A stretch of DNA of 64,000 bases from an uncultured delta proteobacterium (lineage in GTDB: Bacteria; Myxococcota; Myxococcia; Myxococcales; Anaeromyxobacteraceae): positions 192,001 through 256,000 of the forward strand of contig CAWFDF010000008.1 in assembly GCA_963814585.1 (NCBI GenBank). Reading direction: 5' to 3'. Below the pieces are notes generated by a model. The model was not told the DNA's origin. It did not search any database and saw only the letters and a list, made by a program, of their open reading frames with translations. Shown here in pieces: positions 34,024 through 47,908 of this stretch. The position numbers and the translations under genes were made by a program. The first letter of the stretch is position 1, and each line of letters starts with the position of its first letter.

Positions 34024-35370
34024 TCAGCCCGGCAGGGCGCGCCGGACCGTGCCGTCGACCGCGGTGTCGACCAGCGGGCCGGTCGCCAGGCGCGTGGCCG
34101 GGTCGAGGCGCCTCACCAGCGGCTTGTCCCAGCGCGCCCGGTCACGCGCCGGCACCGCCACCCGCCCCAGGCCTCCGTCGGCCAGCTCCACCAGCGTGCC
34201 GGGTGGATGGAGTCCCAGGGCGTTGACCAGCGCCTGCGCCAGCGCGGCGTGGTAGAGCCTCCCGCCGGCCTTGAGCATCGCCCCGAGGGCGTCGGCGCGG
34301 GTGACCTTGGCCCCGTAGAGCCGGATGACGTTGGCGTAGTCCTCCGCGAGTCGCAGCGCCGCTCCGCCGCCCGACGGGGGCCCCTGCGGATCGGCCAGGT
34401 CGCGGTGGTGCTCCAGCACCCCGCGCAGCCTGCGAAGCTTGGCCTCCGAGAAGCCGCGCTGGCGCAGCAGGAGCCGCGCCCCCTCGAGGGGATGGCGCGC
34501 CAGGGCCGCCGTCCCCTCCCCGACCGACGGCACCAGGTACCCGACGTCGTGGACCAGGCCGGCGATGCCGACGTCCTGGAGCAGCCCGGCGGGGAACCCG
34601 GCCGCCTTGCCGGCCAGCAGGGCCACCATGGCCACCTCGACGGCGTGGGCCGCGTGCGGCGGGCAGTCGGGGAAGCCGAGCCAGAAGGCGGGCGCCTCGA
34701 GGCCCGCGGCGAGCGCCTCGGCCACGGCTCGCCGGATGGGCAACGGGTTGAGCACCCGGCCGGCGGCGAGGTGATCCCAGCCGTCGCAGGTCAGGTCGAG
34801 CAGCAGCCGGAGGACCTGCTCCGGCGTCCGCGGCGGCGGCGCTTGCTCCGACCGGGCGGCCTGGAACCGGTAGATGCCCAGCAGCTCCACCGCGTCGAGC
34901 CCCTGGTCCAGCAGCCACTGGCCGAGCGTGCCACGCGGCCACTCCTGGGCGGGCGGGCTGGCCAGCCCCTTCACCAGGGTCCGGATCTGCGGCCCGGTGA
35001 GCGGCGAGTGGAACAGGAGCCCGCCGGTGTTGTGGCGCTTCAGCTCGGCCCCCAGGCCGGCCGCGCCCGGCCGGTCGTCGGTGCGGACGCGGATGTCGTT
35101 GAGGTAGACCTGGTCCTCGACCGTCACCAGGGTGACCGGCCCGAGCGCCTCCCCCAGCGCCGCCAGCACCCGCGCCAGCTCGGCCACCGGCGCGTCGAAG
35201 GCTTGGTTGTCCGGGCTGTGGATCCGGGTCAGCTTGAGGAGGCCGGCCACCAGCTGCACCAGGCTCTCGCCCCCCTCGCGGACCCTCTGCGCCAGCTCCC
35301 GGTCCTCTCCGGCGCGGGCGCGGCCGAGGGCACGGCCGAGGCTGGCCTGGGCCCGGGCGAGCTCATCCAT
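34024..35370 (-). CDS. HD-domain protein (HD-GYP-like, GYP motif degenerate)
   Basis: HAVEV, GLVHDVG, HPLEGA, EHH, and C-terminal LGLHPPGTLVELADG; no GYP. Confidence 0.78.
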   Translation of the reverse strand: MDELARAQASLGRALGRARAGEDRELAQRVREGGESLVQLVAGLLKLTRIHSPDNQAFDAPVAELARVLAALGEALGPVTLVTVEDQVYLNDIRVRTDDRPGAAGLGAELKRHNTGGLLFHSPLTGPQIRTLVKGLASPPAQEWPRGTLGQWLLDQGLDAVELLGIYRFQAARSEQAPPPRTPEQVLRLLLDLTCDGWDHLAAGRVLNPLPIRRAVAEALAAGLEAPAFWLGFPDCPPHAAHAVEVAMVALLAGKAAGFPAGLLQDVGIAGLVHDVGYLVPSVGEGTAALARHPLEGARLLLRQRGFSEAKLRRLRGVLEHHRDLADPQGPPSGGGAALRLAEDYANVIRLYGAKVTRADALGAMLKAGGRLYHAALAQALVNALGLHPPGTLVELADGGLGRVAVPARDRARWDKPLVRRLDPATRLATGPLVDTAVDGTVRRALPG

Positions 35371-37048
35371 GGCGGGCCCCCAGGTGGCGGCGGCGCGCCA
35401 GCATGGCGAGGCAGTGGCGCCGGAGGGCGTCGTCGTCGACCTCCTTGACCAGCGCCTCCAGCTGGGCCAGCGCCTCGGGCGCCGGGTGGGAGGCCAGCCC
35501 CGAGGCGCCGGCGGCGCGCAGGGCGTCGTCGTGCCCGGAGCCCGAGAACGCCTTGAGCAGGCCGCGGCGCGGCTTGAGCCACTCGGCGAAGACGGACGAG
35601 GCTCGCCCCGGATCGAGCCGGGCCATGGCCGAGCCGAAGGCATCGGCCTCGGCGAACGAGCACCCCTTGCGACCAGCCAGCGCGTCGTGGACGGACTGGA
35701 AGGCGGCGGCCTTGCCGCTGCGGGCCAGCGCGCGCGCCACGCCGATGCGGACCGGCTCCCGTGGCGACTGGAGGAGTCGCAGCAGCCGCTGCACCGGCAC
35801 CTCCCCCCCGGCCGCCTCGAGCGCCTGGAGCGCGGCCACCTGCAGGCCCTCGTCCGCGTGATCGAGCAGCGCCAGCGCCGCCGGCGTCGCGAAGGCGGGG
35901 GCCCGGGCGCCGATGGCGGTGACCAGCGCGCGCGCCACCCTGGCGTCGAGCGTGGCGAGCCGCTCGACGATGGCGCCGGCGTCGGCGGGAAGCCGGGCCT
36001 CGGCGACGAGGGCGAGGACGTGACGGCGCCCCGGGTCGACCTCGGTGGCCAGCAGATCGAGGGCGGCCTGCGCGGTGACCAGCGGCACCAGGCGCTGCGC
36101 CTCGGGAGGGAGCCTGGCGCTGCCGGCCGGCACCGCCGCCAGCACCGCGTCGAGCAGCCGGGGATCGCCCAGGGTCCGGAGCAGCTCGTCGCGCAGCGGA
36201 CCGGGAGGCATCCGCGCGGCCAGCTCCGCCAGCTCCGCCAGCGGCGCCAGCGCCGCGTCGGCGATGAAGGCGTCGCGCAGCTCGACCAGGAAGAGCTGCG
36301 CCTCCCGCACCGGGACCACGCCGCGCGCGGCCTCGGCGAGCAGGAGCCCGGCCAGGCGGAGGGCGCCGGCCCCCAGCGCCTCGGCCGCCTCGCCGGCGTG
36401 GAGCGAGGCCAGGGCCTCCGCCGGCACGTCGCGCCAGGCGATGGGACCGGGAGGCGGGAGGAGCGGGAACGGCGCGTCGAAGCCGGCCGGCGCGCGGCTC
36501 CCCGCCCCCCGGGACCGGCGGGTCCGCTCGGGCTCCGGGTTGTCCTCCTCCGGCGTGAACCCCTCGACGGCCTCGAAGCCGATCCGCTGGAACTCACCCT
36601 TGCGGAGCAGCGTGATGACGTCCTCCTCCTGCTGCCGGATGCCCACGTAGCGGACGGCGAGGATCTCGAGGAAGGCCAGCAGCTCCTCCCAGGGCACGCC
36701 GGATCGGAAGGTGATGCGGCGAACGCCATCCCGGAAGAGCCGGAAGGCCAGGGACCGCTCCCGGTCCTCCTCGCGATAGACGGCCTCTCCGTCGCGCAGC
36801 AGCTCGAACGGAAGGACCTCGAGCGTCAGGTCGGCGGCGGCCGTGGCCGCCTCGGCGCGGGCCTGGTAGTCGGAGAGGAACTGCCGGACCACGGCGTTGC
36901 CGGGCGCGTAGAGCGTGAAGGAGCGCGCGGCCTTGGAGAGCGCGGAGACGAACTGCGCCGCCACCGCGCCCGGACCGCTGGTGGCCAGCGGCGCGGCGGG
37001 CCCGGCCTCCCTCGGTGAGCCACCTCTCGGCGGCATGGGCAGCGCCAT
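35363..37048 (-). CDS. HEAT-repeat protein
   Basis: LY..GN N-terminal domain, LAFRLFRDGVRRITF..G...EEL, C-terminal HEAT-like repeats; overlaps the HD gene start. Confidence 0.72.
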   Translation of the reverse strand: MALPMPPRGGSPREAGPAAPLATSGPGAVAAQFVSALSKAARSFTLYAPGNAVVRQFLSDYQARAEAATAAADLTLEVLPFELLRDGEAVYREEDRERSLAFRLFRDGVRRITFRSGVPWEELLAFLEILAVRYVGIRQQEEDVITLLRKGEFQRIGFEAVEGFTPEEDNPEPERTRRSRGAGSRAPAGFDAPFPLLPPPGPIAWRDVPAEALASLHAGEAAEALGAGALRLAGLLLAEAARGVVPVREAQLFLVELRDAFIADAALAPLAELAELAARMPPGPLRDELLRTLGDPRLLDAVLAAVPAGSARLPPEAQRLVPLVTAQAALDLLATEVDPGRRHVLALVAEARLPADAGAIVERLATLDARVARALVTAIGARAPAFATPAALALLDHADEGLQVAALQALEAAGGEVPVQRLLRLLQSPREPVRIGVARALARSGKAAAFQSVHDALAGRKGCSFAEADAFGSAMARLDPGRASSVFAEWLKPRRGLLKAFSGSGHDDALRAAGASGLASHPAPEALAQLEALVKEVDDDALRRHCLAMLARRRHLGARHG

Positions 37049-37258: not shown

Positions 37259-38899
37259 ATGAAGTCCACCGAAACGCCTCCCGGCCCCTCGGCCGATCTC
37301 GGGTACGAGCTCCGCTGGCGCGATCGCCTCTCCTCCAAGCTCCTGCTCTTCACCACCATGGCCGGGCTGGTGATCGTGGCGGCGTTCTTCGTCGCCGAGC
37401 TCCGCTTCGAGCGGTTCGTGGTCCAGCAGGCTGCCGAGGAGTCGGACCTGGTGGCCCAGACCGCGGCCAGCGCCATCTACCGGGCCATGCTCCTCGACCG
37501 GCGCGAGGACGCCTACCGCATCCTCGAAGACATCGGGCGGCAGCCGGGCGTCGATCGGATCCGCCTCCTCGACCACGGCGGCCGCGTCGCCTTCTCGACC
37601 GACGCCACCGAGACCGGCCGGACGCTGGACCCTCGCGGCCCGCACTGCGTGGTCTGCCACGCCGCCGGGGCGGATCGGGCCCCGGGGCTCGAGGGGCGCC
37701 GGCGCGTCGAGGAGGTCGGGGGGCAGCGCGTGCTCCAGCTGGTCGCGCCCATGCCCAACCAGCCGGCCTGCGCCGCCGCCGGCTGCCACGTCCACCCCAC
37801 CGCGGCGAGGCTCCTCGGGCTGCTCGCCGTCGATCGCTCCCTGGCCGCGGCCGATGCCCGGCTGGCTGGCTTCCGCTGGAGCTCGCTGGTGGTCGCCGCC
37901 GTGGTCGCCGCCGCCCTGGGGCTGGCCTTCTGGTGGCTGACCCACCGCCGCCTGGTCCAGCCGGTGGCTGCCCTGGTGGCGGCCACCCGCCGCGTCGCCC
38001 ATCAGGACCTGGAGCAGCCTGCGGCGCCCGACTTCGGCGGGGAGCTCGGGCTGCTGGCGGCCTCCTTCGGCGAGATGGTCCGCTCCCTGCGGGCCACCCG
38101 CGCCGAGCTGGATGCGCTCAACCAGGACCTCGAGCGCCAGGTCGAGGACCGCACCCGGGCGCTGGTCGAGACCCGCGAGCAGCTGGCGCGGGGCGAGACG
38201 CTGGCCGCCCTGGGCCGGCTCTCCGCCGCCGTCGGACACCGGCTGGGCAGCCCGCTCTCCGGCATCCTCACCATCGCCCGGAACGGCGCCCGCTCGCTCG
38301 AGGCCGGCCCCCTTCCCGACCCCGAGCGCGCCCGGCTGGCCCACGATCTCCGGCTCGTCGAGCGGGAGGCCGATCGCGCCGGCGAGGTGGTGGTGCGGCT
38401 CCTCGACTTCTCGCGCGAGCGCCCCTTCTCGGCGCAGCTCCTCGGAGCCGACTCGGTGGTCGACGAGGCGCTGGAGCTGGCCACGTCCGAGGCGAGGCTG
38501 CAGGGCATCGCCGTCACCCGGCGCAGCACGCCGACCTCTCCGCTCCTGGCCGACCGCAGCCAGCTCCGGCAGGCCGTGCTCGACACGCTGCTCCGGGCCT
38601 TCGGCGCCATGCCGGACGGCGGGCAGCTCACCGTCGAGACCGGCCCGGCCGCGAGCGGCCGCGAGGTCGAGATCGCCGTCACCGACTCGGGCCCGATGCT
38701 CCCGGCCGGGGAGCTGGGCCGCGTCTTCGAGCCCGACTTCTCGGCCACGGCGGGCGCCGGCCTCGGGCTGGCGCAGGCCCACGCCATCGCCGTCCGCCAC
38801 GGCGGGCGGCTCGAGGTCACCAGCGAGCCGGGACGAGGCACCCGGATCGCCATCCGCCTGCCGGCACCACCTGCGGCCGACGAGGGCGCCGGGCGGTGA
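37259..38899 (+). CDS. Membrane sensor kinase-like protein with periplasmic c-haem motifs; degenerate kinase core
   Basis: TM-CVVCH-CAAAGCH-TM-HAMP; H-box VGHRLGSP, N-box QAVLDTLLRAFGAM lacking both Asn. Confidence 0.85.
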   Translation: MKSTETPPGPSADLGYELRWRDRLSSKLLLFTTMAGLVIVAAFFVAELRFERFVVQQAAEESDLVAQTAASAIYRAMLLDRREDAYRILEDIGRQPGVDRIRLLDHGGRVAFSTDATETGRTLDPRGPHCVVCHAAGADRAPGLEGRRRVEEVGGQRVLQLVAPMPNQPACAAAGCHVHPTAARLLGLLAVDRSLAAADARLAGFRWSSLVVAAVVAAALGLAFWWLTHRRLVQPVAALVAATRRVAHQDLEQPAAPDFGGELGLLAASFGEMVRSLRATRAELDALNQDLERQVEDRTRALVETREQLARGETLAALGRLSAAVGHRLGSPLSGILTIARNGARSLEAGPLPDPERARLAHDLRLVEREADRAGEVVVRLLDFSRERPFSAQLLGADSVVDEALELATSEARLQGIAVTRRSTPTSPLLADRSQLRQAVLDTLLRAFGAMPDGGQLTVETGPAASGREVEIAVTDSGPMLPAGELGRVFEPDFSATAGAGLGLAQAHAIAVRHGGRLEVTSEPGRGTRIAIRLPAPPAADEGAGR

Positions 38900-38906
38900 C
38901 TCCGCG

Positions 38907-39455
38907 ATGGACCCCATCTCCATCTGCTGGATCGGGGAGCACGAGGCGGTCCCGGCGGTGATCGAGCGCGTGCGCCACGAGCTGGAGCGCGCCTACGGCG
39001 TGCCGGCGGTCCTCTGGGACCCGGCCGACCGGCCGCGCGACACCCTCGACCCGAAGCGGCGCCAGCACGCCTCCGGCAAGCTGCTGGCCTGGCTGCTCCA
39101 GGCCGCTCCACCCGGCCGGAAGGTCCTGGGGCTCACCGACCAGGACCTGTTCATCCCCATCCTCACCTACGTGTTCGGCGAGGCCCAGCTCGGCGGCCGC
39201 GTGGCGGTGGCCTCCACCGCCCGGCTCTCCGAGGACCTCGACCGCCGGGGCGAGCGACGCTTCACCGAGCGGGTCGTCAAGGAGGCGGTCCACGAGGTGG
39301 GCCACGCCTACGGCCTGGTGCACTGCAACGTCCCTCGCTGCGTCATGAGCCGCGCCGCCGGCGTCCGCGACGTCGACGAGAAGTCCGTCGAGCTCTGTCC
39401 ACGCTGTCGCCGCCGGCTCTCCGAGCCGGGGAGGAGTCCTCATGGCCTCGAATGA
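38907..39455 (+). CDS. Archaemetzincin (peptidase M54) Zn protease
   Basis: DLFIPILTYVFGEA, KEAVHEVGHAYGLVHC...CVM...D.K...LCPRC. Confidence 0.9.
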   Translation: MDPISICWIGEHEAVPAVIERVRHELERAYGVPAVLWDPADRPRDTLDPKRRQHASGKLLAWLLQAAPPGRKVLGLTDQDLFIPILTYVFGEAQLGGRVAVASTARLSEDLDRRGERRFTERVVKEAVHEVGHAYGLVHCNVPRCVMSRAAGVRDVDEKSVELCPRCRRRLSEPGRSPHGLE

Positions 39456-40851
39456 GCGCGTCCGCATCCTGGTGGTCGACGACGAGGAGATCGTCCGGGA
39501 GTCGCTGGCCGGCTGGCTGGACAAGGACGGCTACGCGGTCGACCAGGCGGCCGACGGGCCCTCGGCGCTGGAGAAGCTGCGCGCCCGGCCCTACTCCATC
39601 CTCATCGCCGACCTGAAGATGCCGGGCATGGACGGCCTCACCGTCCAGGTCGAGGCCCGGAAGCTGCAGCCCGCCCTGGCGGTGGTGATCATGACCGCCT
39701 ACGCCACCGTCGACACCGCCGTGACGGCCATGAAGCAGGGCGCCTTCGACTACCTCGTGAAGCCGTTCGATCCCGAGGAGTTGACGATGATGATGCAGAA
39801 GATCGTCGCCCAGCAGGAGCTGCTGCGCGAGAACGCCGTGCTCCGCAAGGCGCTGAAGAAGGAGCACCGGCTCCACGATCTCGCCTCCAAGGCCCCGGCG
39901 ATGCAGGCGGTCTTCGACCTGGCCCGCAGCGCGGCCCGCTCCAGCTCCACCATCCTCGTCCTCGGCGAGTCCGGCTCGGGCAAGGAGGTCCTGGCCCGCG
40001 CCATCCATGCCGAGAGCCCGCGCGCCGAGGGCCCGTTCGTGGAGGTCTCGTGCGCCGCGCTCACCGAGACGCTGCTGGAGTCCGAGCTCTTCGGCCACGA
40101 GAAGGGGTCCTTCACCGGCGCCACCGCGCGACGCAAGGGCAAGTTCGAGGCCGCCCACAAGGGCACCCTCTTCCTCGACGAGGTCGGCGACATCGGCCCC
40201 AAGCTCCAGCTCGACCTGCTGCGGGTGCTGGAGGAGCGCCGCTTCCAGCGGATCGGCGGCAACGAGACGGTCGAGGTGGACGTCCGCATCGTCGCCGCGA
40301 CCAACAAGGACCTGCAGCGGGCCGTGGCGGCCGGGAGCTTCCGGGAGGACCTCTTCTACCGGCTCAACGTCATCCCCATCCGCCTGCCCCCGCTCCGGGA
40401 ACGGCGCGAGGACATCCCGCTGCTGGTCGACCACTTCATCGAGCGGCTCTCGGCCGAGCTGGGACGGCCCATCGAGGGGATCTCGGCCGAGGCCATGAAC
40501 GCGCTGATGATCCAGCCCTGGCCAGGGAACGTGCGCGAGCTGCGCAACGTCCTCGAACGGGGCGCGGTCGTTGCGCGCGGGCCGCTCATCGAGCTGGAGG
40601 ACCTCGGCCTCACCACTCGAGCGGGCCCCGCCCCGGCAGGGCCACCGCCCGCAGCCGTGACCTCGCCCGATGAGTCGCTCGACGAGGTGGAGCGGCGGCA
40701 CATCGCCAGCGTGCTGGCCCACACCGGGTTCAACGTCAGCCAGTCGGCCCGGGTCCTCGGCGTCGACCGGGTCACGCTCTACAACAAGATGCGAAAGTAT
40801 GGGCTGCGGCGGGAGGGCGAGGAGGAGCCTGGCCCGCCGAGCGCCCGTTGA
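39442..40851 (+). CDS. Sigma54-dependent response regulator (NtrC/AtoC family)
   Basis: REC with [37 protein letters not shown], Fis HTH. Confidence 0.93.
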   Translation: MASNERVRILVVDDEEIVRESLAGWLDKDGYAVDQAADGPSALEKLRARPYSILIADLKMPGMDGLTVQVEARKLQPALAVVIMTAYATVDTAVTAMKQGAFDYLVKPFDPEELTMMMQKIVAQQELLRENAVLRKALKKEHRLHDLASKAPAMQAVFDLARSAARSSSTILVLGESGSGKEVLARAIHAESPRAEGPFVEVSCAALTETLLESELFGHEKGSFTGATARRKGKFEAAHKGTLFLDEVGDIGPKLQLDLLRVLEERRFQRIGGNETVEVDVRIVAATNKDLQRAVAAGSFREDLFYRLNVIPIRLPPLRERREDIPLLVDHFIERLSAELGRPIEGISAEAMNALMIQPWPGNVRELRNVLERGAVVARGPLIELEDLGLTTRAGPAPAGPPPAAVTSPDESLDEVERRHIASVLAHTGFNVSQSARVLGVDRVTLYNKMRKYGLRREGEEEPGPPSAR

Positions 40852-40915
40852 GCACCGACGAAGTTCTCCACACCTTCCCCATCCGACTGTAGAGCGCCGT
40901 TGAGTTCTTCCACGC
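40843..40915 (+). promoter_or_regulatory. Enhancer (UAS) copy 1, 73 bp
   Basis: 63/73 identical to 43592-43664; two internal units 42 bp apart. Confidence 0.8.
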
Positions 40916-41008
40916 CCGCTGGCGCGCGGCGGGCGTGCGCCGGCGCGCGGCCAGCGACATCTCCCAGTGAATCCGGTCGATTCCGCGGCGGCGCCGCGCC
41001 GGGGCCGC

Positions 41009-41025
41009 TTGGCCCCATCCTTGCT
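41009..41025 (+). promoter_or_regulatory. Sigma54 (-24/-12) promoter
   Basis: TTGGCCCCATCCTTGCT, GG-N10-GC. Confidence 0.82.
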
Positions 41026-41048: not shown

Positions 41049-41258
41049 ATGACTTGCCCGTATCGGAAAGAGGTCTCGATGGTCTTCTGCCGGGCCTACC
41101 CGGTGAAGAAGCTGGTCCCGATCGATCGAGTCACCACCGCGAGCACCTGCGAAGGCGAGGGCTTCCGGACCTGCGCGGCCTACGCCGAGGCGGCGGGACG
41201 CAGCTGGCGAGGGAACGTGGACGAAGACGACACCCTGGAGGGGGCGGGCCATTCCTGA
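41049..41258 (+). CDS. Small four-cysteine protein
   Basis: GGAGG RBS; MTCPY..C..C..C; first gene after the sigma54 promoter. Confidence 0.7.
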   Translation: MTCPYRKEVSMVFCRAYPVKKLVPIDRVTTASTCEGEGFRTCAAYAEAAGRSWRGNVDEDDTLEGAGHS

Positions 41259-41279
41259 ATGGACCCGAGGGAGACAGCC

Positions 41280-42158
41280 ATGAGGATGACGAGGCGAGCG
41301 TTCTTCAAGGTGGCGGGCGTCACGGCCGGCACCGGTCTTGCCGTGGCGGCCACGGCGCGGGCGGCGGACCCGGCCCCGGCCGACGAGTCGCTCCCCGGCG
41401 TGCTGGTCGACACCACCCGCTGCGCCGGCTGCCGGGCCTGCGAGGCGGCCTGCGCCGAGACCAACAAGAACCCGGCCCCCGCCGAGAGCGCCGACATGTC
41501 GGTGCGCCGCGACACCAGCCAGCACGTCTTCACGGTGATCAACCGGGCCGAGGGCCCGGGTGGCGTGGAGCGCTTCGCGAAGAAGCAGTGCATGCACTGC
41601 CTCGCCCCGGCCTGCGCCTCGGCCTGCCCGGTCCGGGCCATGGACAAGCTCCCCACCGGCCCGGTGGTCTACGACGCGTCCAAGTGCATGGGCTGCCGCT
41701 ACTGCATGGTGGCCTGCGCCTTCGACATCCCCAAGTACGAGTACGAGCGGGCCGCGCCGCGCGTGCGCAAGTGCACCTTCTGCGCCGAGCGCCAGGCCGA
41801 GGGCCTCGAGCCGGCCTGCACCTCGGTCTGCCCCACCGGCGCGCTCACCTTCGGCAAGCGGGCCGCGCTGCTCGAGGAGGCCAAGCGGCGCATCTACGCC
41901 GAGGGCTCCAGGTACGTGCGCCGCGTCTACGGCGAGCGCGAGGCCGGCGGCACCAGCTGGCTCTACATCTCGGACATCCCCTTCGAGCAGCTGGCGCTCA
42001 ACACCGGGATGCCGGAGCGCCCGTACACCGAGCTGGTGGCCGGCGCGCTGGGCGCTCCCCCCTTCGTCATGACGCTCTGGCCGCCGCTGCTGATGGGGCT
42101 CTACACGTTCTCGAAGCGCCGTGAAGAGGTCGAGGAGAAGGAGGAGCACCATGGCTAA
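41280..42158 (+). CDS. Tat-exported 4x[4Fe-4S] protein, HybA/HmcB-like
   Basis: TRRAFFK Tat motif; CAGCRACEAAC, CMHCLAPACASACP, CMGCRYCMVAC, KCTFC..PAC..VCP; E.GGTSWLY; C-terminal TM. Confidence 0.9.
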   Translation: MRMTRRAFFKVAGVTAGTGLAVAATARAADPAPADESLPGVLVDTTRCAGCRACEAACAETNKNPAPAESADMSVRRDTSQHVFTVINRAEGPGGVERFAKKQCMHCLAPACASACPVRAMDKLPTGPVVYDASKCMGCRYCMVACAFDIPKYEYERAAPRVRKCTFCAERQAEGLEPACTSVCPTGALTFGKRAALLEEAKRRIYAEGSRYVRRVYGEREAGGTSWLYISDIPFEQLALNTGMPERPYTELVAGALGAPPFVMTLWPPLLMGLYTFSKRREEVEEKEEHHG

Positions 42159-43374
42159 CGCCACCGCCGCTTCGCTGGCCGGCAGCTCGTCGTTCTTCCG
42201 CGAGAAGATCTTGCTGGGCATGGGCTGGGGCGAGTACCTCCGCTCCCTGCTCACTCCGGGCAACGCCGTGGCCGCCGTCATCCTGGTGGTCGGCCTCCCG
42301 CTGCTCGCCTACCGGTTCGCGGCCGGCCTGGGCGCCACCACGGCCCTGTCCCAGGCCTACCCCTGGGGCCTCTGGATCGGCTTCGACATGATGACCGGCA
42401 TCGTCCTCGCCGCCGGGGGCTTCACCGTCGGGGCCACGGTCCAGCTGCTCGGCCTGAAGGACTACCACGCCATCGAGCGGTCGGCGATCCTCACCGCCTT
42501 CCTCGGCTACCTGATGGCGATCTTCGGCCTGCTGGCCGACCTGGGCCGGCCCTGGAACATCGTCCAGGCCATCTTCAACTACGGCACCGCCTCGGCCCTC
42601 TTCGAGGTCGCCTGGTGCGTGATGTGCTACTCGACCGTCCTCTTCCTGGAGTTCACCCTGCCCTTCTTCGAGTGGCTCGGCTGGCGGCGCATCCACGCCG
42701 TCCTCAAGAAGGCGCTCATCGCCCTCACCGTGATGTCGGTGGTCTTCTCCACCATGCACCAGTCGGCGCTCGGGTCGCTCTTCCTGCTGGCGCCCACCAA
42801 GCTCCACCCGCTCTGGTACTCGCCCTTCATCTTCATCTTCTTCTTCATCTCGGCGATCCTGGCCGGGATCGCCATGGCCATCATCGAGAGCTCCATCTCG
42901 CACCGGGTCTTCGCCCGCCAGCTGGGTGGGCAGCACGTCGACGTGGACAAGCTGGTGGTCGGCCTCGGCAAGGCCGGCGCGGTGGTGTCCTTCGCCTACT
43001 TCTTCATCAAGCTGCAGGGCGTCATCGACGGACACGCCTGGGGTCACCTGGCCACCGGGTGGGGCGCGCTCTTCCTCGTCGAGACCGTCGGCCTGGTGCT
43101 GGTCCCCTCCTTCCTCTTCGCCTACGGTGCCCGCAACGGCCAGGCCGGGCCCGTCAAGCTGGCGGCGGTGCTGACGGTGTGCGGCATCATCCTCAACCGG
43201 CTCAACGTCGCGGTCATCGCCTTCAACTGGACCAACCCCGTCCGGTACGCGCCGAGCTGGATGGAGGTCTGGGTCTCGATCACGCTGGTCACGCTCGGCG
43301 TCGTCGCCTTCCGGTGGATCGTCAACCGCATGCCGATCCTCCGTGAGGACCCGGCCTTCCCGCAGGAACACTGA
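42151..43374 (+). CDS. NrfD-family integral membrane protein, HybB/HmcC-like
   Basis: YPWGLWIGFD, LAAGGF, AILTAFLGY, DLGRPW, STMHQSALG, KLHPLWYS, RLNV, Y.PSW.E. Confidence 0.9.
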   Translation: MANATAASLAGSSSFFREKILLGMGWGEYLRSLLTPGNAVAAVILVVGLPLLAYRFAAGLGATTALSQAYPWGLWIGFDMMTGIVLAAGGFTVGATVQLLGLKDYHAIERSAILTAFLGYLMAIFGLLADLGRPWNIVQAIFNYGTASALFEVAWCVMCYSTVLFLEFTLPFFEWLGWRRIHAVLKKALIALTVMSVVFSTMHQSALGSLFLLAPTKLHPLWYSPFIFIFFFISAILAGIAMAIIESSISHRVFARQLGGQHVDVDKLVVGLGKAGAVVSFAYFFIKLQGVIDGHAWGHLATGWGALFLVETVGLVLVPSFLFAYGARNGQAGPVKLAAVLTVCGIILNRLNVAVIAFNWTNPVRYAPSWMEVWVSITLVTLGVVAFRWIVNRMPILREDPAFPQEH

Positions 43375-43394
43375 GCGGGCCATCCAGGGGGGCT

Positions 43395-43422
43395 GCGGCG
43401 CCGCGCTCATGCGCGGCGCCGC
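43395..43422 (+). terminator. Perfect 12-bp hairpin after the HybB-like gene
   Basis: GCGGCGCCGCGC-TCAT-GCGCGGCGCCGC followed by GTCATTTC (weak U tract). Confidence 0.45.
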
Positions 43423-43591
43423 GTCATTTCCGGGCCGCCCGGGACCCTTCCGCCTCCTCACCCCCTCGGACCAGGCCCGGGACCGGCCCGCACCGGACTC
43501 GACGCCAGCCAGGCGGCGCGCGCCCCCGCGGCCGGCCGGGTCCAGCCCGGCGAGGAGCTGCCTGGGCGCCGTGCGCCACCGTGGACCTGGT

Positions 43592-43664
43592 GCCCGTAGA
43601 GCGCCGTCGAAGTTCTCCACACATCCCCTCCACGACTGTAGAGCGCCGTTGAGTTCCTCCACGC
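43592..43664 (+). promoter_or_regulatory. Enhancer (UAS) copy 2, 73 bp
   Basis: GTAGAGCGCCGTCGAAGTTCTCCAC and GTAGAGCGCCGTTGAGTTCCTCCAC units 42 bp apart. Confidence 0.8.
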
Positions 43665-43757
43665 TTCCCTGCGGGAGCCCGTCCCCACCGGACGCGGTGG
43701 CACCTTCACCTACCTGGAAGTACGGGCCATTTGGCGTCGCCGCCGGGCCGAGCCGAC

Positions 43758-43774
43758 TTGGCCGCATCCTTGCT
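43758..43774 (+). promoter_or_regulatory. Sigma54 (-24/-12) promoter
   Basis: TTGGCCGCATCCTTGCT, 16/17 identical to the 41009 promoter. Confidence 0.82.
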
Positions 43775-43822
43775 ACTGCTCTCCATGGAGTCGCGAAGTA
43801 CCCGCCCGCAACGGAGACGGCA

Positions 43823-44563
43823 ATGACCCACGAATTCCTCAGCATCTACCCGGCCAAGCTCATGGAGTACGGCCTGGCGATCACCTACCTGCTGCTCTTC
43901 ATCCCCATGTGGCGCTACGTGCAGGGTGGCCGCCGCCAGGCCGCGGAGGCCGTGGTGCGCGGGCGCCGCGACGCCGAGCGCTGGCCTGCCGTCGCGGTGG
44001 CGGCCCCGTGGCCGAGCCTCGGCTGGTTCCAGGTCCCGGCAGGCGTGGCCCTCCACCCGGGTCACACCTGGGCCCGGCTCGACGCCGACGGCACCGTGGC
44101 GGTGGGCGTGGATGACTTCGCCCAGCGGCTGGTGGCGCCGACCCGCATCGAGCTGCCGCGCGCCGGCGCCGTGGTGGCGCAGGGTGAGTCGGCCGTGGCG
44201 CTGGGCGACGGCCACCGCACCGTGCCGCTGGTCTCCCCGGTCAACGGGACGGTGGTGGCGGTGAACCGCGCCGTGGCCGAGACCCCGGACCTGCTCCAGG
44301 ACCCCTACGGCGCCGGCTGGCTCTTCAAGGTGAAGGCCCCGCGGCTCGAGGCCGACCAGCGGCAGCTGCTCCACGCCCAGTCGGCGCGCCACTTCCTGGA
44401 TGGCGAGGCGGAGGCCCTGGCGATGCGGGCCAGCCCGGAGGTCGGACAGGTGCTGCAGGACGGCGGCGTGCCGGTCCACGGGCTGGCCCGGGCGCTGGCC
44501 GGGGACGCCGGCTGGGACGCGCTGGCCCGCGAGTTCTTCCACACCGAGAAGGGGACGCCATGA
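43823..44563 (+). CDS. Membrane-anchored glycine cleavage H-like protein lacking the lipoyl-Lys (His at that position)
   Basis: N-terminal TM; HPGHTW, VGVDDFAQ, SPVNG.V..VN, DPYGAGW; LGDGHR in place of AESVKA; C-terminal DGG extension. Confidence 0.85.
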   Translation: MTHEFLSIYPAKLMEYGLAITYLLLFIPMWRYVQGGRRQAAEAVVRGRRDAERWPAVAVAAPWPSLGWFQVPAGVALHPGHTWARLDADGTVAVGVDDFAQRLVAPTRIELPRAGAVVAQGESAVALGDGHRTVPLVSPVNGTVVAVNRAVAETPDLLQDPYGAGWLFKVKAPRLEADQRQLLHAQSARHFLDGEAEALAMRASPEVGQVLQDGGVPVHGLARALAGDAGWDALAREFFHTEKGTP

Positions 44564-44907
44564 CCACCACGCTCCGTCGGGCCCTGCGGATGACCAGCGC
44601 CGTCGTGCTGCTGGGCGCCGGCCTGGCCCTGGCCTACGAGCTGCCCCGCCTTCCCGGGCCCGTCGCCCTGAAGCGAGGCGCCGACAGCCCCGGCCTGGTG
44701 ACCTTCCGGCACGAGAGCCACGTCGACTCGGCCAAGCCCACCTGCCTGGCCTGCCACCCGGAGCGGTTCAGCCTGCTCGGCCGCACCGCCACCGAGAAGC
44801 GGCCGGACATCACCCACGATCGCATGACCGGGGGGCGCGACTGCGGCGCCTGCCACGGGAAGGAGGCCTTCGGCCTGGACGACTGCACCAACTGTCACGC
44901 GGAGTGA
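44560..44907 (+). CDS. Periplasmic trihaem c7-type cytochrome
   Basis: Signal peptide, VTFRHESH, CLACH, CGACH, CTNCH. Confidence 0.9.
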   Translation: MTTTLRRALRMTSAVVLLGAGLALAYELPRLPGPVALKRGADSPGLVTFRHESHVDSAKPTCLACHPERFSLLGRTATEKRPDITHDRMTGGRDCGACHGKEAFGLDDCTNCHAE

Positions 44908-44958
44908 GCGTAGCGTCACGGATGACCGCATCATGCTGAAAGGAAGAAGGAGACTGTC

Positions 44959-45660
44959 ATGACCACCATCTACGGAGCCATCGAACTGGTTGCGGTGTTC
45001 CTCGTCGGGCTGGCCGCGCGCGCCGGCATCGTCCTCGCCCTCGTCGTCTTGCTGGCCATCCCGGTCCTGCTCATCGCCGCCATGATGCGCGGCGCCGGCG
45101 AGCTGAAGAAGAGGTCGCTCGGCCTCCGCGAGGTGGCTGGGCTCATCTTCCGGCCCGACGCCTGGTACAGCGCCGGCCACACCTGGATGACCCGGCTCGC
45201 CGGTGGCTCGCTCCGCATCGGCCTCGATGCCCTCGCCCTCCGGCTCATGCCCACCGTCAACGGCGTCGAGCTGAAGCCGGCCGGGACCCGCGTCACCAGG
45301 GGCGCGACCATCGCCACCATCCACGCCGGCGCCCGCTCGCTGGCGATCCGCTCCCCGGTCGACGGCGTGGTGGTGGCCGCCAACGCCGCCGCGCTCCGCG
45401 ACCCGTCACTGGTCAAGAGCGACGGCTATGGCCGCGGCTGGCTGGTCACCGTGGCTCCCGCCAACATGGCCTTCGCCGACCTGCCCAGCGGCCGCTCCGC
45501 CGAGAAGTTCCTCCGCGAGGAGGCGGCGCGCTGGAACCACTTCGTCGAGGGTCGGCTCGGCTACGCGGCCGCCGACGGCGGCGAGCTGACGGCGCCGGCG
45601 CCCTGGCTGCTCGGCGACGAGGGCTGGCGCGAGCTGGCCGACGCCTTCGTCGACCGCTGA
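44959..45660 (+). CDS. Second membrane-anchored glycine cleavage H-like protein lacking the lipoyl-Lys (Ala at that position)
   Basis: N-terminal TM; YSAGHTW, RIGLD, SPVDG.V...N, DGYGRGWL; IHAGAR in place of AESVKA; DGG extension. Confidence 0.85.
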   Translation: MTTIYGAIELVAVFLVGLAARAGIVLALVVLLAIPVLLIAAMMRGAGELKKRSLGLREVAGLIFRPDAWYSAGHTWMTRLAGGSLRIGLDALALRLMPTVNGVELKPAGTRVTRGATIATIHAGARSLAIRSPVDGVVVAANAAALRDPSLVKSDGYGRGWLVTVAPANMAFADLPSGRSAEKFLREEAARWNHFVEGRLGYAAADGGELTAPAPWLLGDEGWRELADAFVDR

Positions 45661-45662
45661 GC

Positions 45663-46106
45663 TCAGCGGCCGGGTCCCGCCTCGCGGCGGTCCAGGCGCG
45701 GCTCCCGGCGGCCCGGTCCAGGGTCGCCGGCGGGCCGCGCCGGCGTTTCCGGGTGCCGGCGGGCCAGCCCCCAAGCCGATGGTGACCCGTGCCGCGCCCC
45801 AGGCAAGATGACGTGACGAGAGAGCCGAGACCGAAGCGAGGCTGGCGCCCGAGGAGGGAGCAGCGGAAGCGTAGCAGCGCTACGCTGAGCAGCGGACCGA
45901 CGAGGCCGCCTGCCGCAGCGAGAGGATCGGCTCTCGCAGTAGGCATCTTGCCTGGGGCGCGGCACGAGCCCCGGGAGCGGCAGCGCCGCCACGAAGAGGA
46001 GGCCGAGCACCGGCGCGGCGACGAGGAGCAGCGGCGTCGGGACGAGGCGCCGGGGCCGCCGGGGTGGCGAGGCCGGCCGGGCGGCTCCTCGAGGGCCCGG
46101 CCTCAC
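45663..46106 (-). CDS. Small membrane protein ORF carrying an in-frame MITE insertion
   Basis: VPTPLLLVAAPVLGLLFVAALP hydrophobic segment; GTG overlaps the kinase TGA; frame stays open across the 177-bp repeat. Confidence 0.4.
   Translation of the reverse strand: MRPGPRGAARPASPPRRPRRLVPTPLLLVAAPVLGLLFVAALPLPGLVPRPRQDAYCESRSSRCGRRPRRSAAQRSAATLPLLPPRAPASLRSRLSRHVILPGARHGSPSAWGLARRHPETPARPAGDPGPGRREPRLDRREAGPGR
45789..45965. mobile_element. Full-length (177 bp) MITE-like element
   Basis: Perfect 22-bp TIR GTGCCGCGCCCCAGGCAAGATG; interior nearly identical (inverted) to 56675-56855. Confidence 0.88.
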
Positions 46107-47755
46107 TCGGCGACCAGCTCGCCACCACCCGTCCCCGGCTCGACGGCCGGGAGCCGGATGACGAAGCGCGCCCCGTGGCCCGGTGCGCGCTCCACGTCGA
46201 TGCGCCCACCGTGCCGTGTCACGATGCCGTAGACCACGGAGAGGCCGAGGCCGGTGCCCTTCTCCTTGGTGGTGAAGAACGGGTCGAAGATCTTGCGGAG
46301 GTTCTCGGGTGAGATGCCCGGCCCGGTGTCCTCGACGGCGATCTCGACGGTCCGGCCCCCGTCGGCGACCCGGGTCTCCAGCAGCAGCGTGCCGCCCTCC
46401 CCCATGGCCTCCATGGCGTTGAGGGCGAGGTTGACCACGGCCTGCCGCAGCTCGCCGAAGTCGGCCAGGACCGGCGGAAGCGGCTGGAGCCTGCGGTCGA
46501 GCCGGAGGCCGGCGATGCTGAGCTTGTGGCCGACGAGCTGGATCGACTCCTCGATGGCGGCGTTGGCGTCGACCGGCTCGAGCTTGAGCGGCCGCTCGCG
46601 GGCGAAGTCGAGCAGGTTGCGGACGATGGCCGAGCAGCGCCCGGCCTCCCGCTCCACCAGCGACAGGTTCCGGGTGAGCGTGGCGCGGCTGGCCGGGTCG
46701 GGGACGGCGGTCTCGAGCTGGCGCGTGACCAGCTTGGCGAAGGTGAGGATGCCGGCCAGGGGGTTGTTGATCTCGTGGGCGATCGACGCCGAGAGCTGGC
46801 CGAGCGAGGAGAGCTTCTCGGTCTGGACCAGCGCCGCCTGGGCCCTGCGCAGGTCGGCGGTCCGATCCTCGACCTTCTGCTCCAGCTCGACGTTGAGCGA
46901 CCTCAGGTCACCCTCGACGCGGCGCAGCGAATGGGTCATCTCGTTGAACGACCTGGCCAGGACCCCCAGCTCGCCGCGGTCGTCGACCTGGATCTCCTGG
47001 TCGAGCTGATCACGGGCGATCCGGCGGGTGCCCTCGAGGATGGCGGAGACCGGCTGGACCACCCTGCGGCGCGCGAAGGTGACCAGGGTCCCGCCGAGCA
47101 GCGTCACGCCGAGCACGGCCGCGGCCAGCCCGAACACCCGGGCCATGGACTGCCGGCGATCGGCCTCCTCGAGCGAGACCAGCACCTCCTGGATGCCCAG
47201 CACCTGGTCGCCGCGCGCATGGTGGTGGCAGGTCGAGGAGGAGCAGCGGGCCTCGTTGTGGATGGGGGTGATGACGTGGAGGGCGCGGTGCCCTTCCATC
47301 TCCACGACCCGGCTGGCCCGGTCGACGCTGAGCCGGGCGAGCGGCTGGGGGCCCTGGTGGCAGGGGCGGCACGACTCCTCGGTGCGATCGAGGATCAGCC
47401 CCTCCTCGCCGGAGACCGTGGAGAAGGTGATGGTGCCGTCCTTGTTGAAGACGCGGACCAGGTCGATGCCGGGCTGGCGCCCGATGGCCCGCATGATCTC
47501 GTAGGCGTCGGACCGGCGGTCCTCCAGCATGGCCCGCCGCGTGGCGCTGGAGATGGTCTCGCCGAAGAGGACCGCCCCGGAGAGGGCCTGCTCCATGAGC
47601 GCCTGGCGCATGGTCCGCTCGAAGGCGCCGTAGGCGATGAGCGAGCCGACGAAGAGGATGGCGGTCAGCGAGAGGAGCTGCGTGGAGAGCCGGTGGCGCC
47701 ACGGGATCCTCGCCGTGGGGTCCTGCTGCGGACCGGAGGTGGGTCCCCGCCTCAT
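46103..47755 (-). CDS. Membrane sensor histidine kinase with periplasmic c-haem motifs (intact kinase)
   Basis: TM-CRPCH-CSSSTCH-TM-HAMP; AHEINNPL, QAVVNLALNA, DTGPGI, FDPFFTTK, GTGLGL. Confidence 0.9.
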   Translation of the reverse strand: MRRGPTSGPQQDPTARIPWRHRLSTQLLSLTAILFVGSLIAYGAFERTMRQALMEQALSGAVLFGETISSATRRAMLEDRRSDAYEIMRAIGRQPGIDLVRVFNKDGTITFSTVSGEEGLILDRTEESCRPCHQGPQPLARLSVDRASRVVEMEGHRALHVITPIHNEARCSSSTCHHHARGDQVLGIQEVLVSLEEADRRQSMARVFGLAAAVLGVTLLGGTLVTFARRRVVQPVSAILEGTRRIARDQLDQEIQVDDRGELGVLARSFNEMTHSLRRVEGDLRSLNVELEQKVEDRTADLRRAQAALVQTEKLSSLGQLSASIAHEINNPLAGILTFAKLVTRQLETAVPDPASRATLTRNLSLVEREAGRCSAIVRNLLDFARERPLKLEPVDANAAIEESIQLVGHKLSIAGLRLDRRLQPLPPVLADFGELRQAVVNLALNAMEAMGEGGTLLLETRVADGGRTVEIAVEDTGPGISPENLRKIFDPFFTTKEKGTGLGLSVVYGIVTRHGGRIDVERAPGHGARFVIRLPAVEPGTGGGELVAE

Positions 47756-47829: not shown

Positions 47830-47908
47830 GTGCCCAGACCCCGGCAAGGTGCCTGCAGCGAGAGGATCGGCCCTCTCGTCGCGTCATCCTGCCTGGGTCA
47901 CGGCACTA
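47830..47908. mobile_element. Short degenerate copy of MITE-like family
   Basis: GTGCCCAGACCCCGGCAAGGTGCC...GAGAGGATCGGC...CATCCTGCCTGGGTCACGGCACTAG. Confidence 0.7.

Follow-up and report, generated by a model that had tools for sequence, protein, structure and literature searches.

We analysed a 64,000-nucleotide (nt) window from an uncultured delta proteobacterium of the Anaeromyxobacteraceae (GenBank assembly GCA_963814585.1, contig CAWFDF010000008.1, positions 192,001 to 256,000) that encodes two homologues of GcvH, the H-protein of glycine cleavage, here called P0001 (type A) and P0002 (type B). In order, the locus holds a sensor kinase (copy 1), an archaemetzincin, a sigma-54 response regulator, a small protein with four invariant cysteines (Cys4), HmcB-like and HmcC-like proteins, P0001, a c7 cytochrome, P0002 and a convergent second kinase (copy 2). 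Both H-domain proteins keep the H-protein fold yet cannot be lipoylated at the canonical site, and both end in a tail with a DGG motif; we call them and their relatives the H-DGG family.

P0001 and P0002 are 36% identical over 183 residues, and both match the Pfam GCV_H profile (E = 1e-21 and 2e-16). Gap-free alignments place His131 of P0001 on the lipoyl-lysine of the solved E. coli H-protein (E = 8e-20) and Ala125 of P0002 on that of the solved M. tuberculosis protein (ESTK; E = 2e-11), with an arginine following each, as had been proposed from the codons CAC and GCC. Neither the lysine nor its E-S/T-x-K context is present, and the claim that the proteins cannot be lipoylated at this site is also supported. 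The hairpins (LGDGHRTVPL in P0001, IHAGARSLAI in P0002) lack any lysine, which contradicts lipoylation at a hairpin lysine in either protein, and neither contains a cysteine.

Residues 64-246 of P0001, modelled with AlphaFold2 from a 138-row alignment (predicted local distance difference test (pLDDT) 89), superpose on the pea H-protein with a Z score of 18.6 and a root-mean-square deviation of 1.6 Å over 129 residues, in keeping with the repurposed H fold suggested originally; the fold of P0002 was assigned from its sequence. Beyond the H fold, the model has one lengthened and one short helix, then the DGG loop (pLDDT 60-77 in this monomer) and a last helix. The shared tail had been described as DGG...GD..W..LA..F; the D-G-G, W and F hold across the family, while the 'GD' and 'LA' are local. 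A profile built from the tail alone, a check that had been called for, matched only the P0001 and P0002 genes in the source genome and gave no significant match to PDB or Pfam, and the ESM Atlas returned only clusters labelled GCV_H or hypothetical.

Both genes are under purifying selection, with ratios of non-synonymous to synonymous substitution rates (dN/dS) against relatives of 0.19-0.26 and 0.14-0.40. The genome's one canonical gcvH (ESTK) lies elsewhere on the contig, some 115 kb off, beside genes that we take from their sequence to be gcvT- and gcvP-like; annotation of the window genes as gcvH would indeed mislead.

Membrane anchors, promoters and neighbouring genes

Both proteins carry an N-terminal anchor, as originally predicted. 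That of P0001 has moderate hydrophobicity only (best 19-residue Kyte-Doolittle value 1.34), explained by its being an HmcD-like helix in which K, E and Y are conserved. The N-terminal 40 residues of P0001 gave no direct match to the HmcD model NF045712, which was matched by the anchors of 9/9 type-A relatives (E = 1.6e-7 to 4.8e-4) at 20-31 bits, under its 34-bit cut-off. A profile of 16 non-Anaeromyxobacter anchors had P0001 as its sole significant match in the genome (E = 3.5e-6), and 33 of 50 type-A genes directly adjoin hmcC, which is the hmcC-hmcD order. P0001 is very probably a subunit of a membrane complex through its HmcD-type helix, and the homology of this anchor to HmcD implies that the operon would encode a reduced HmcB-HmcC-HmcD complex with a cytochrome. 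Basic residues follow the anchor in 49/50 type-A proteins and 54/59 other anchored members (positive-inside bias); together with fusions to cytoplasmic domains, this pattern strongly suggests that both H domains face the cytoplasm. The type-A linker (residues ~37-65) is variable in length and sequence.

Table 1. Positions, in window coordinates, of the genes, motifs and promoters at the H-DGG locus.
Feature	Position	Strand	Description
Sensor kinase copy 1	37259..38899	+	Periplasmic CxxCH and Cx4CH motifs; degenerate H-box (HRLGSP) and N-box
Archaemetzincin (M54) zinc metallopeptidase	38907..39455	+	HEVGHAYGLVHC intact; NF033823 159.5 bits, cut-off 145
Sigma-54 (NtrC-type) response regulator	39442..40851	+	Member of family-linked clade
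Operon sigma-54 promoter region	40843..41025	+	-24/-12 site 41010-41024; upstream site 40899-40913
Small Cys4 protein, 69 amino acids	41049..41258	+	Invariant C3, C14, C34, C42 (C-x10-C-x19-C-x7-C)
HmcB/HybA-like Fe-S protein	41259..42158	+	Twin-arginine signal, 16 Cys; top NCBIfam match HmcB, 324 bits (cut-off 420)
HmcC/NrfD-family membrane quinone subunit	42151..43374	+	Top NCBIfam match HmcC, 442 bits (cut-off 550)
Internal sigma-54 promoter region	43592..43774	+	TGGC-N7-TTGC at 43759-43773; palindromic sites 43606-43620, 43648-43662
P0001, type A, 246 amino acids	43823..44563	+	HmcD-like helix (residues ~1-36), linker, H-protein domain (~70-192), DGG tail
HmcD-homologous anchor of P0001	43823..43930	+	Invariant K12, E15, Y16; W30
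His131 of P0001 at lipoyl-Lys position	44213..44215	+	Codon CAC
DGG motif of P0001, residues 213-215	44459..44467	+	Loop joining two helices of the added tail
Trihaem c7-type cytochrome	44560..44907	+	Signal-peptide-like N-terminus; start overlaps P0001 stop (ATGA); three CxxCH
P0002, type B, 233 amino acids	44959..45660	+	Long hydrophobic anchor (residues ~5-42), basic stretch, H-protein domain, DGG tail
Ala125 of P0002 at lipoyl-Lys position	45331..45333	+	Codon GCC
DGG motif of P0002, residues 206-208	45574..45582	+	Tail motif
Sensor kinase copy 2	46103..47755	-	Both haem-type motifs present; HEINNP and N-box intact; convergent on H-domain pair; start uncertain

The internal promoter region, between hmcC and P0001, is a 183-nt duplicate of the operon promoter (72% identical) found among close relatives only here and at locus L001; at L002-L006 it is lacking and the gene directly adjoins hmcC. 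We regard this promoter/enhancer duplication (43592-43774) as recent. The -24/-12 pattern matched four times in the window against 1.45 expected, so the weight rests on the position of the sigma-54 sites and not on their number.

Among the neighbouring genes, the cytochrome passes TIGR04257 (59.1 bits, cut-off 40). That the H-domain pair sandwiches it, as first noticed, is true here; at L007 and L012 it stands upstream of the first H-domain gene. The archaemetzincin carries the HExxHxxGxxH-Cys motif. Kinase copy 1 is kept in L001-L006 (dN/dS 0.23-0.31) and, judged by its motifs, is likely a pseudokinase paired with the intact copy 2. The Cys4 protein matched nothing in Pfam or NCBIfam and only hypothetical clusters in the Atlas, and its predicted fold has a pLDDT of 59 and a predicted template modelling score of 0.27; it is separate in Anaeromyxobacter and elsewhere fused once or twice to an H-DGG domain.

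A gene pair encoding HEAT-repeat and HD-domain proteins (34024-37048, minus strand), divergent from the kinase, is also kept in L001-L006. Between the convergent genes lies a perfect 23-nt inverted repeat around a 133-nt loop (45788-45966); similar sequence near 47880 and 56850 suggests a mobile element like a repetitive extragenic palindrome or miniature inverted-repeat transposable element (REP/MITE). In two metatranscriptomes from a single study, contigs of relatives (85-93% alike) span 41087-45660 and link P0001, the cytochrome and P0002; they were not counted, since this stretch itself served to find the runs and a contig is no proof of a transcript.

A widespread family tied to a regulatory cassette

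A scan of GTDB genomes yielded 79 loci (labelled L001 onward), which are not independent since about 28 of them are Anaeromyxobacter-like, and 160 family domains including those of the window. L079, with a true lysine in a lipoate-ligase context, was left out of the counts; the 160 include a domain from an 885-amino-acid kinase-receiver-H open reading frame (ORF) at L057 that is probably a frameshift artefact, while L027, L028, L040 and L064 are frameshifted long-read loci with partial domains. The family size is a lower bound. Loci occur in Myxococcota, Acidobacteriota, Thermodesulfobacteriota, Planctomycetota, Gemmatimonadota, Calditrichota, Ignavibacteriota/Bacteroidota, Glassbacteria and Zixiibacteriota. 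Full-length members were present in 14/18 genomes of the same family and 0/12 from other families of the order, and the tail-only profile matched 29/40 genomes of the taxonomic family and 30/151 in the phylum of L030.

Across the 160 domains, the former lysine site is occupied by G (47), E (17), D (17), A (16), H (12), S (12), R (10), N (10), K (9) and others, and DGG is present in 148. Among close homologues, DGG is found in 121/121 of type A (which forms one clade, support 0.954) and 82/84 of type B, lysine at the site in 1/121 and 0/84, and the E-S/T-x-K context in none. The His and Ala of the window are therefore variable; what is constant is the loss of the lysine and its context. That the hairpin tip drifts while DGG stays marks the tail as the conserved novelty. 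Members are named 'glycine cleavage system H protein' or 'lipoate-binding protein' in databases, which inflates predictions of glycine cleavage. We found no description of a lysine-less H-DGG family in the literature searched, from which most subscription papers fall outside, and so far as that search reaches the family is undescribed, though built from known parts.

The family's linkage to a sigma-54 regulator/archaemetzincin cassette is closer than that to respiration or the cytochrome. Among the 47 loci that span 18 kb or more, 35 carry two or more family domains; in these 35, kinase, regulator and archaemetzincin are found together in 34, HmcBC in 31 and a Cys4 module, fused or adjacent, in 30. 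The Cys4 modules are of two types, never found together and unrelated by hhalign (probability 1%). At six long loci, the cassette stands without HmcBC. A second set, 20 regions from 15 genomes picked from tail-profile matches and counted by hand, had the sigma-54 regulator in 16, the archaemetzincin in 13 and HmcB with HmcC in 8. The sensor region bears CxxCH plus Cx4CH in 56/57 kinases of the first set, and some kinases of the second are PAS kinases without haem motifs. Though kinase types differ, 61/62 full-length locus regulators fall in one clade (support 0.997) that excludes the genome's 12 other sigma-54 regulators.

Three related Ignavibacteria/Bacteroidota loci (L070, L072, L073) combine the cassette with two family genes separated by 43-46 nt, and their genomes, one of them a single-chromosome assembly, have no HmcC match anywhere; their family genes show dN/dS of 0.15-0.23 between genomes. 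Among ten genomes checked that have an HmcBC-less locus, four others contain a strong HmcC-type match elsewhere. At L071, hmcBC lies between two family genes, at the junction that is 43-46 nt in L070, L072 and L073; since the closest relative of L071 is L073, loss or regain of hmcBC happened more than once. HmcB homologues of 249-264 amino acids without a twin-arginine signal directly follow two anchored H-DGG genes at L051-L056, L061, L068, L069 and L071, with hydrogenase maturation or formate dehydrogenase genes near some of these loci.

The H domain is also fused to receiver domains, to the two unrelated Cys4 modules, to Fe-S/MvhD proteins, to acetyl-CoA synthetase and, beside NuoE/NuoF-like genes, to a HoxU-like Fe-S protein. 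The enzyme fusions lie at L112:6173-8815 (-), L110:6047-9040 (-), L111:5136-8102 and L077:8251-9576, the H-type domain being C-terminal to acetyl-CoA synthetase, to Fe-S/MvhD/molybdopterin-binding proteins or to a HoxU-like subunit. Extra solitary type-A copies in Anaeromyxobacter-like genomes (L011, L014, L016, L021-L023, L025) have their own sigma-54 promoter with a different upstream motif (CCGCTGCGGTTGTCA-like). The original prediction had raised a heterodimer of the two proteins; complex prediction for the two soluble domains, from their own alignments (74 and 70 rows), scored 0.00 in both runs, which speaks neither for nor against one, and the type-A genes alone at L011, L012, L021-L023 and L025 imply that a fixed heterodimer is not required. 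Beyond that prediction, the analysis adds that the first anchor is HmcD-like, that the tie to the cassette is the tighter one, that promoter regions hold an upstream palindrome, that the regulators form a single clade, that family genes are under selection in genomes without HmcC and that the domain is fused to enzymes.

Possible functions of the H-DGG proteins

The explanation that we prefer, holding it with about equal belief and doubt, is that the H-DGG proteins act as cofactor-free docking modules in the cytoplasm, linking a quinone complex of HmcB, HmcC, HmcD and cytochrome with a dedicated sigma-54 cassette. With the lipoyl site lost, the fold intact and the tail conserved, P0001 would join the membrane complex through its HmcD-type helix, with both H domains in the cytoplasm. 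The c7 cytochrome and HmcB may exchange electrons with quinone through HmcC, in either direction, and the haem-motif kinase may sense the same periplasmic redox pool; the phosphorylated regulator would then bind GTTGA-N5-TCAAC-like sites and fire both sigma-54 promoters. Most speculatively, docking of the H-DGG domains and the Cys4 protein on the kinase, the regulator or the archaemetzincin could act back on signalling, with the flexible DGG loop as the predicted binding element; transcription of the redox complex would then depend on whether the complex is present or on its state. PspA and PspF provide a precedent for anchoring and sequestration of a sigma-54 activator. Palindromes of this kind have perfect copies at Gemmatimonadota and Acidobacteriota loci, and a genome scan for a regulon found this locus alone.

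Several observations weigh against this proposal. Co-location with the regulator is equally expected of plain target genes. HmcBC occurs without the cassette at the solitary type-A loci L012 and L022, type-A genes at L011, L021, L023 and L025 have neither within 10 kb (two frameshifted family genes also stand alone), and the Desulfo-type loci L110 and L114 have no regulator or peptidase nearby. All six receiver-fused forms are without the DGG tail. The outgroups of the regulator tree come from one genome alone, and the palindrome counts (20/28 promoter regions against 1.9 expected, and an enrichment of 36 against 2.0) are partly circular because the consensus was read from the counted regions.

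A bolder extension, possible rather than probable in our judgement, is that anaerobes attach the H-DGG domain, as a portable tag, to any enzyme they need to monitor and so control one ancient clade of sigma-54 activators. The tagged enzymes would be HmcD of the quinone module, HoxU-like and MvhD/Fe-S proteins and acetyl-CoA synthetase, and control might run through the DGG loop, Cys4 modules and archaemetzincin, by direct docking or regulated proteolysis. If true, this would be a new class of anaerobic signalling system and would give a defined role to bacterial archaemetzincins, for which the locus already offers a candidate function.

The strongest alternative, rather doubtful but to be taken seriously, is that these are structural or assembly subunits, the HmcD-H and transmembrane-H proteins capping the respiratory complex on its cytoplasmic side, in place of HmcE/HmcF or as a dock for a soluble redox partner, much as the cofactor-less barrel-sandwich domains of NqrA and RnfC do, with the cassette serving transcriptional control only. 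The HmcD fusion and hmcC adjacency, the presence of HmcC in 27/31 long type-A loci, the fusions to HoxU-like and MvhD/Fe-S proteins, and the weak structural likeness to NqrA/Rnf barrel-sandwich domains (Z 3.1-3.5; NQRA_N at E = 6e-5 on one member) are all what it would lead one to expect. It accommodates poorly the purifying selection on type B and Cys-type members in genomes without HmcC and the minimal loci with kinase, regulator, peptidase and H-DGG genes only (L066, L126-L129), and HmcC-type subunits have no known cytoplasmic electron exit absent an HmcE-like cytochrome b.

It is unlikely that the H cleft and DGG loop instead bind a small ligand or metal, or serve as the scaffold of a redox switch made with the Cys4 modules (Zn or Fe-S). 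The family-specific conserved polar residues (HxGHTW, GxDD, DGG), the low pLDDT of the DGG region and the recurrence of two mutually exclusive Cys4 modules would suit such a non-lipoate carrier or sensor, but the tail resembles nothing in PDB or Pfam, and the two window proteins have no cysteine. Less likely by a clear step is a regulated-proteolysis relay in which the archaemetzincin cuts the linker and frees the H domain from the membrane, or uses the proteins as adaptors: its motif is intact in 45/52 ORFs, it is co-inherited with the family and the type-A linker is variable, but no cleavage site is conserved, soluble members have no anchor, and genomes devoid of the family can also have archaemetzincins (in genus g21, peptidase 6/6 and tail 0/6). 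That the proteins are lipoylated after all at a neighbouring lysine, or are decaying gcvH copies, is hardly credible given the lysine-free hairpins, the selection on both genes and the canonical gcvH, despite the lysine at the site in the 93%-identical orthologue of L001 and in other members, and at +1 in 40/121 of type A, where it is common.

The docking proposal aside, at least nine phyla of anaerobes harbour a large family without cofactor that arose from a carrier whose hallmark was taken to be a single lysine. Cultured Anaeromyxobacter, open to genetics, are among the organisms that have it (strain K, Fw109-5 and A. oryzae).

Comparison with known systems

With GcvH (PF01597, TIGR00527; PDB 1dxm, 3ab9), the window proteins share the whole fold, 30-35% identity and the invariant structural residues H-x-W, G, P-x-x-G, N and G-W. 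They differ in lacking the lipoyl-lysine and E-S/T-x-K, in their N-terminal anchors and in the helical DGG tail of ~50 residues; they score far under the equivalog cut-offs of TIGR00527/PRK01202 (71.6/78.1 and 45.7/63.2 bits against 115.85/117), and no gcvT, gcvP or gcvL lies nearby. LbpA of the sHdr system and GcvH-L (PDB 5a35) are likewise H-protein homologues outside glycine cleavage; according to one account (PMC10332631), they carry lipoate on a conserved lysine with ligases alongside, whereas the window proteins have neither that lysine nor ligases. Against the named GcvH-related family NF045810 (GcvH_rel_desulf), they score 28.5 and 34.8 bits (cut-off 150), and five genomes rich in the H-DGG family contain no member over that cut-off. 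By these defining tests, they are not GcvH, LbpA, GcvH-L or NF045810 proteins.

The barrel-sandwich hybrid domains of NqrA and RnfC likewise have a lipoyl-type fold without a cofactor, in a respiratory complex. They come at ranks 36, 37 and 45 among the structural neighbours of the P0001 model and are only distantly related (Z about 3) to the window proteins, which keep the full H fold as separate, paralogous, anchored proteins. Simiate/FAM206A is a lysine-less eukaryotic parallel.

Desulfovibrio Hmc comprises HmcABCDEF in section 11 of one account, which does not mention GcvH (bioRxiv 10.1101/2023.11.02.564894). HmcC is close to QrcD and HybB and probably electrogenic, and the direction and role of Hmc are uncertain even in Desulfovibrio, according to PMC6303296. 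The locus resembles a reduced Hmc but is not one by its defining tests: HmcB and HmcC, though the top matches, score 324 < 420 and 442 < 550 bits, no NF045713 (HmcA) match over the cut-off was found in the 92%-complete genome, and HmcE and HmcF are absent from the locus, the part of the genome searched for them. What it offers is a minimal HmcBCD-type complex, with HmcB-, HmcC- and HmcD-like parts in the same order plus a periplasmic c-type cytochrome, in which a trihaem cytochrome replaces the 16-haem HmcA, the HmcD-like part is fused to an H domain, and a kinase, a sigma-54 regulator, a peptidase and a Cys4 protein, all dedicated to it, are added.

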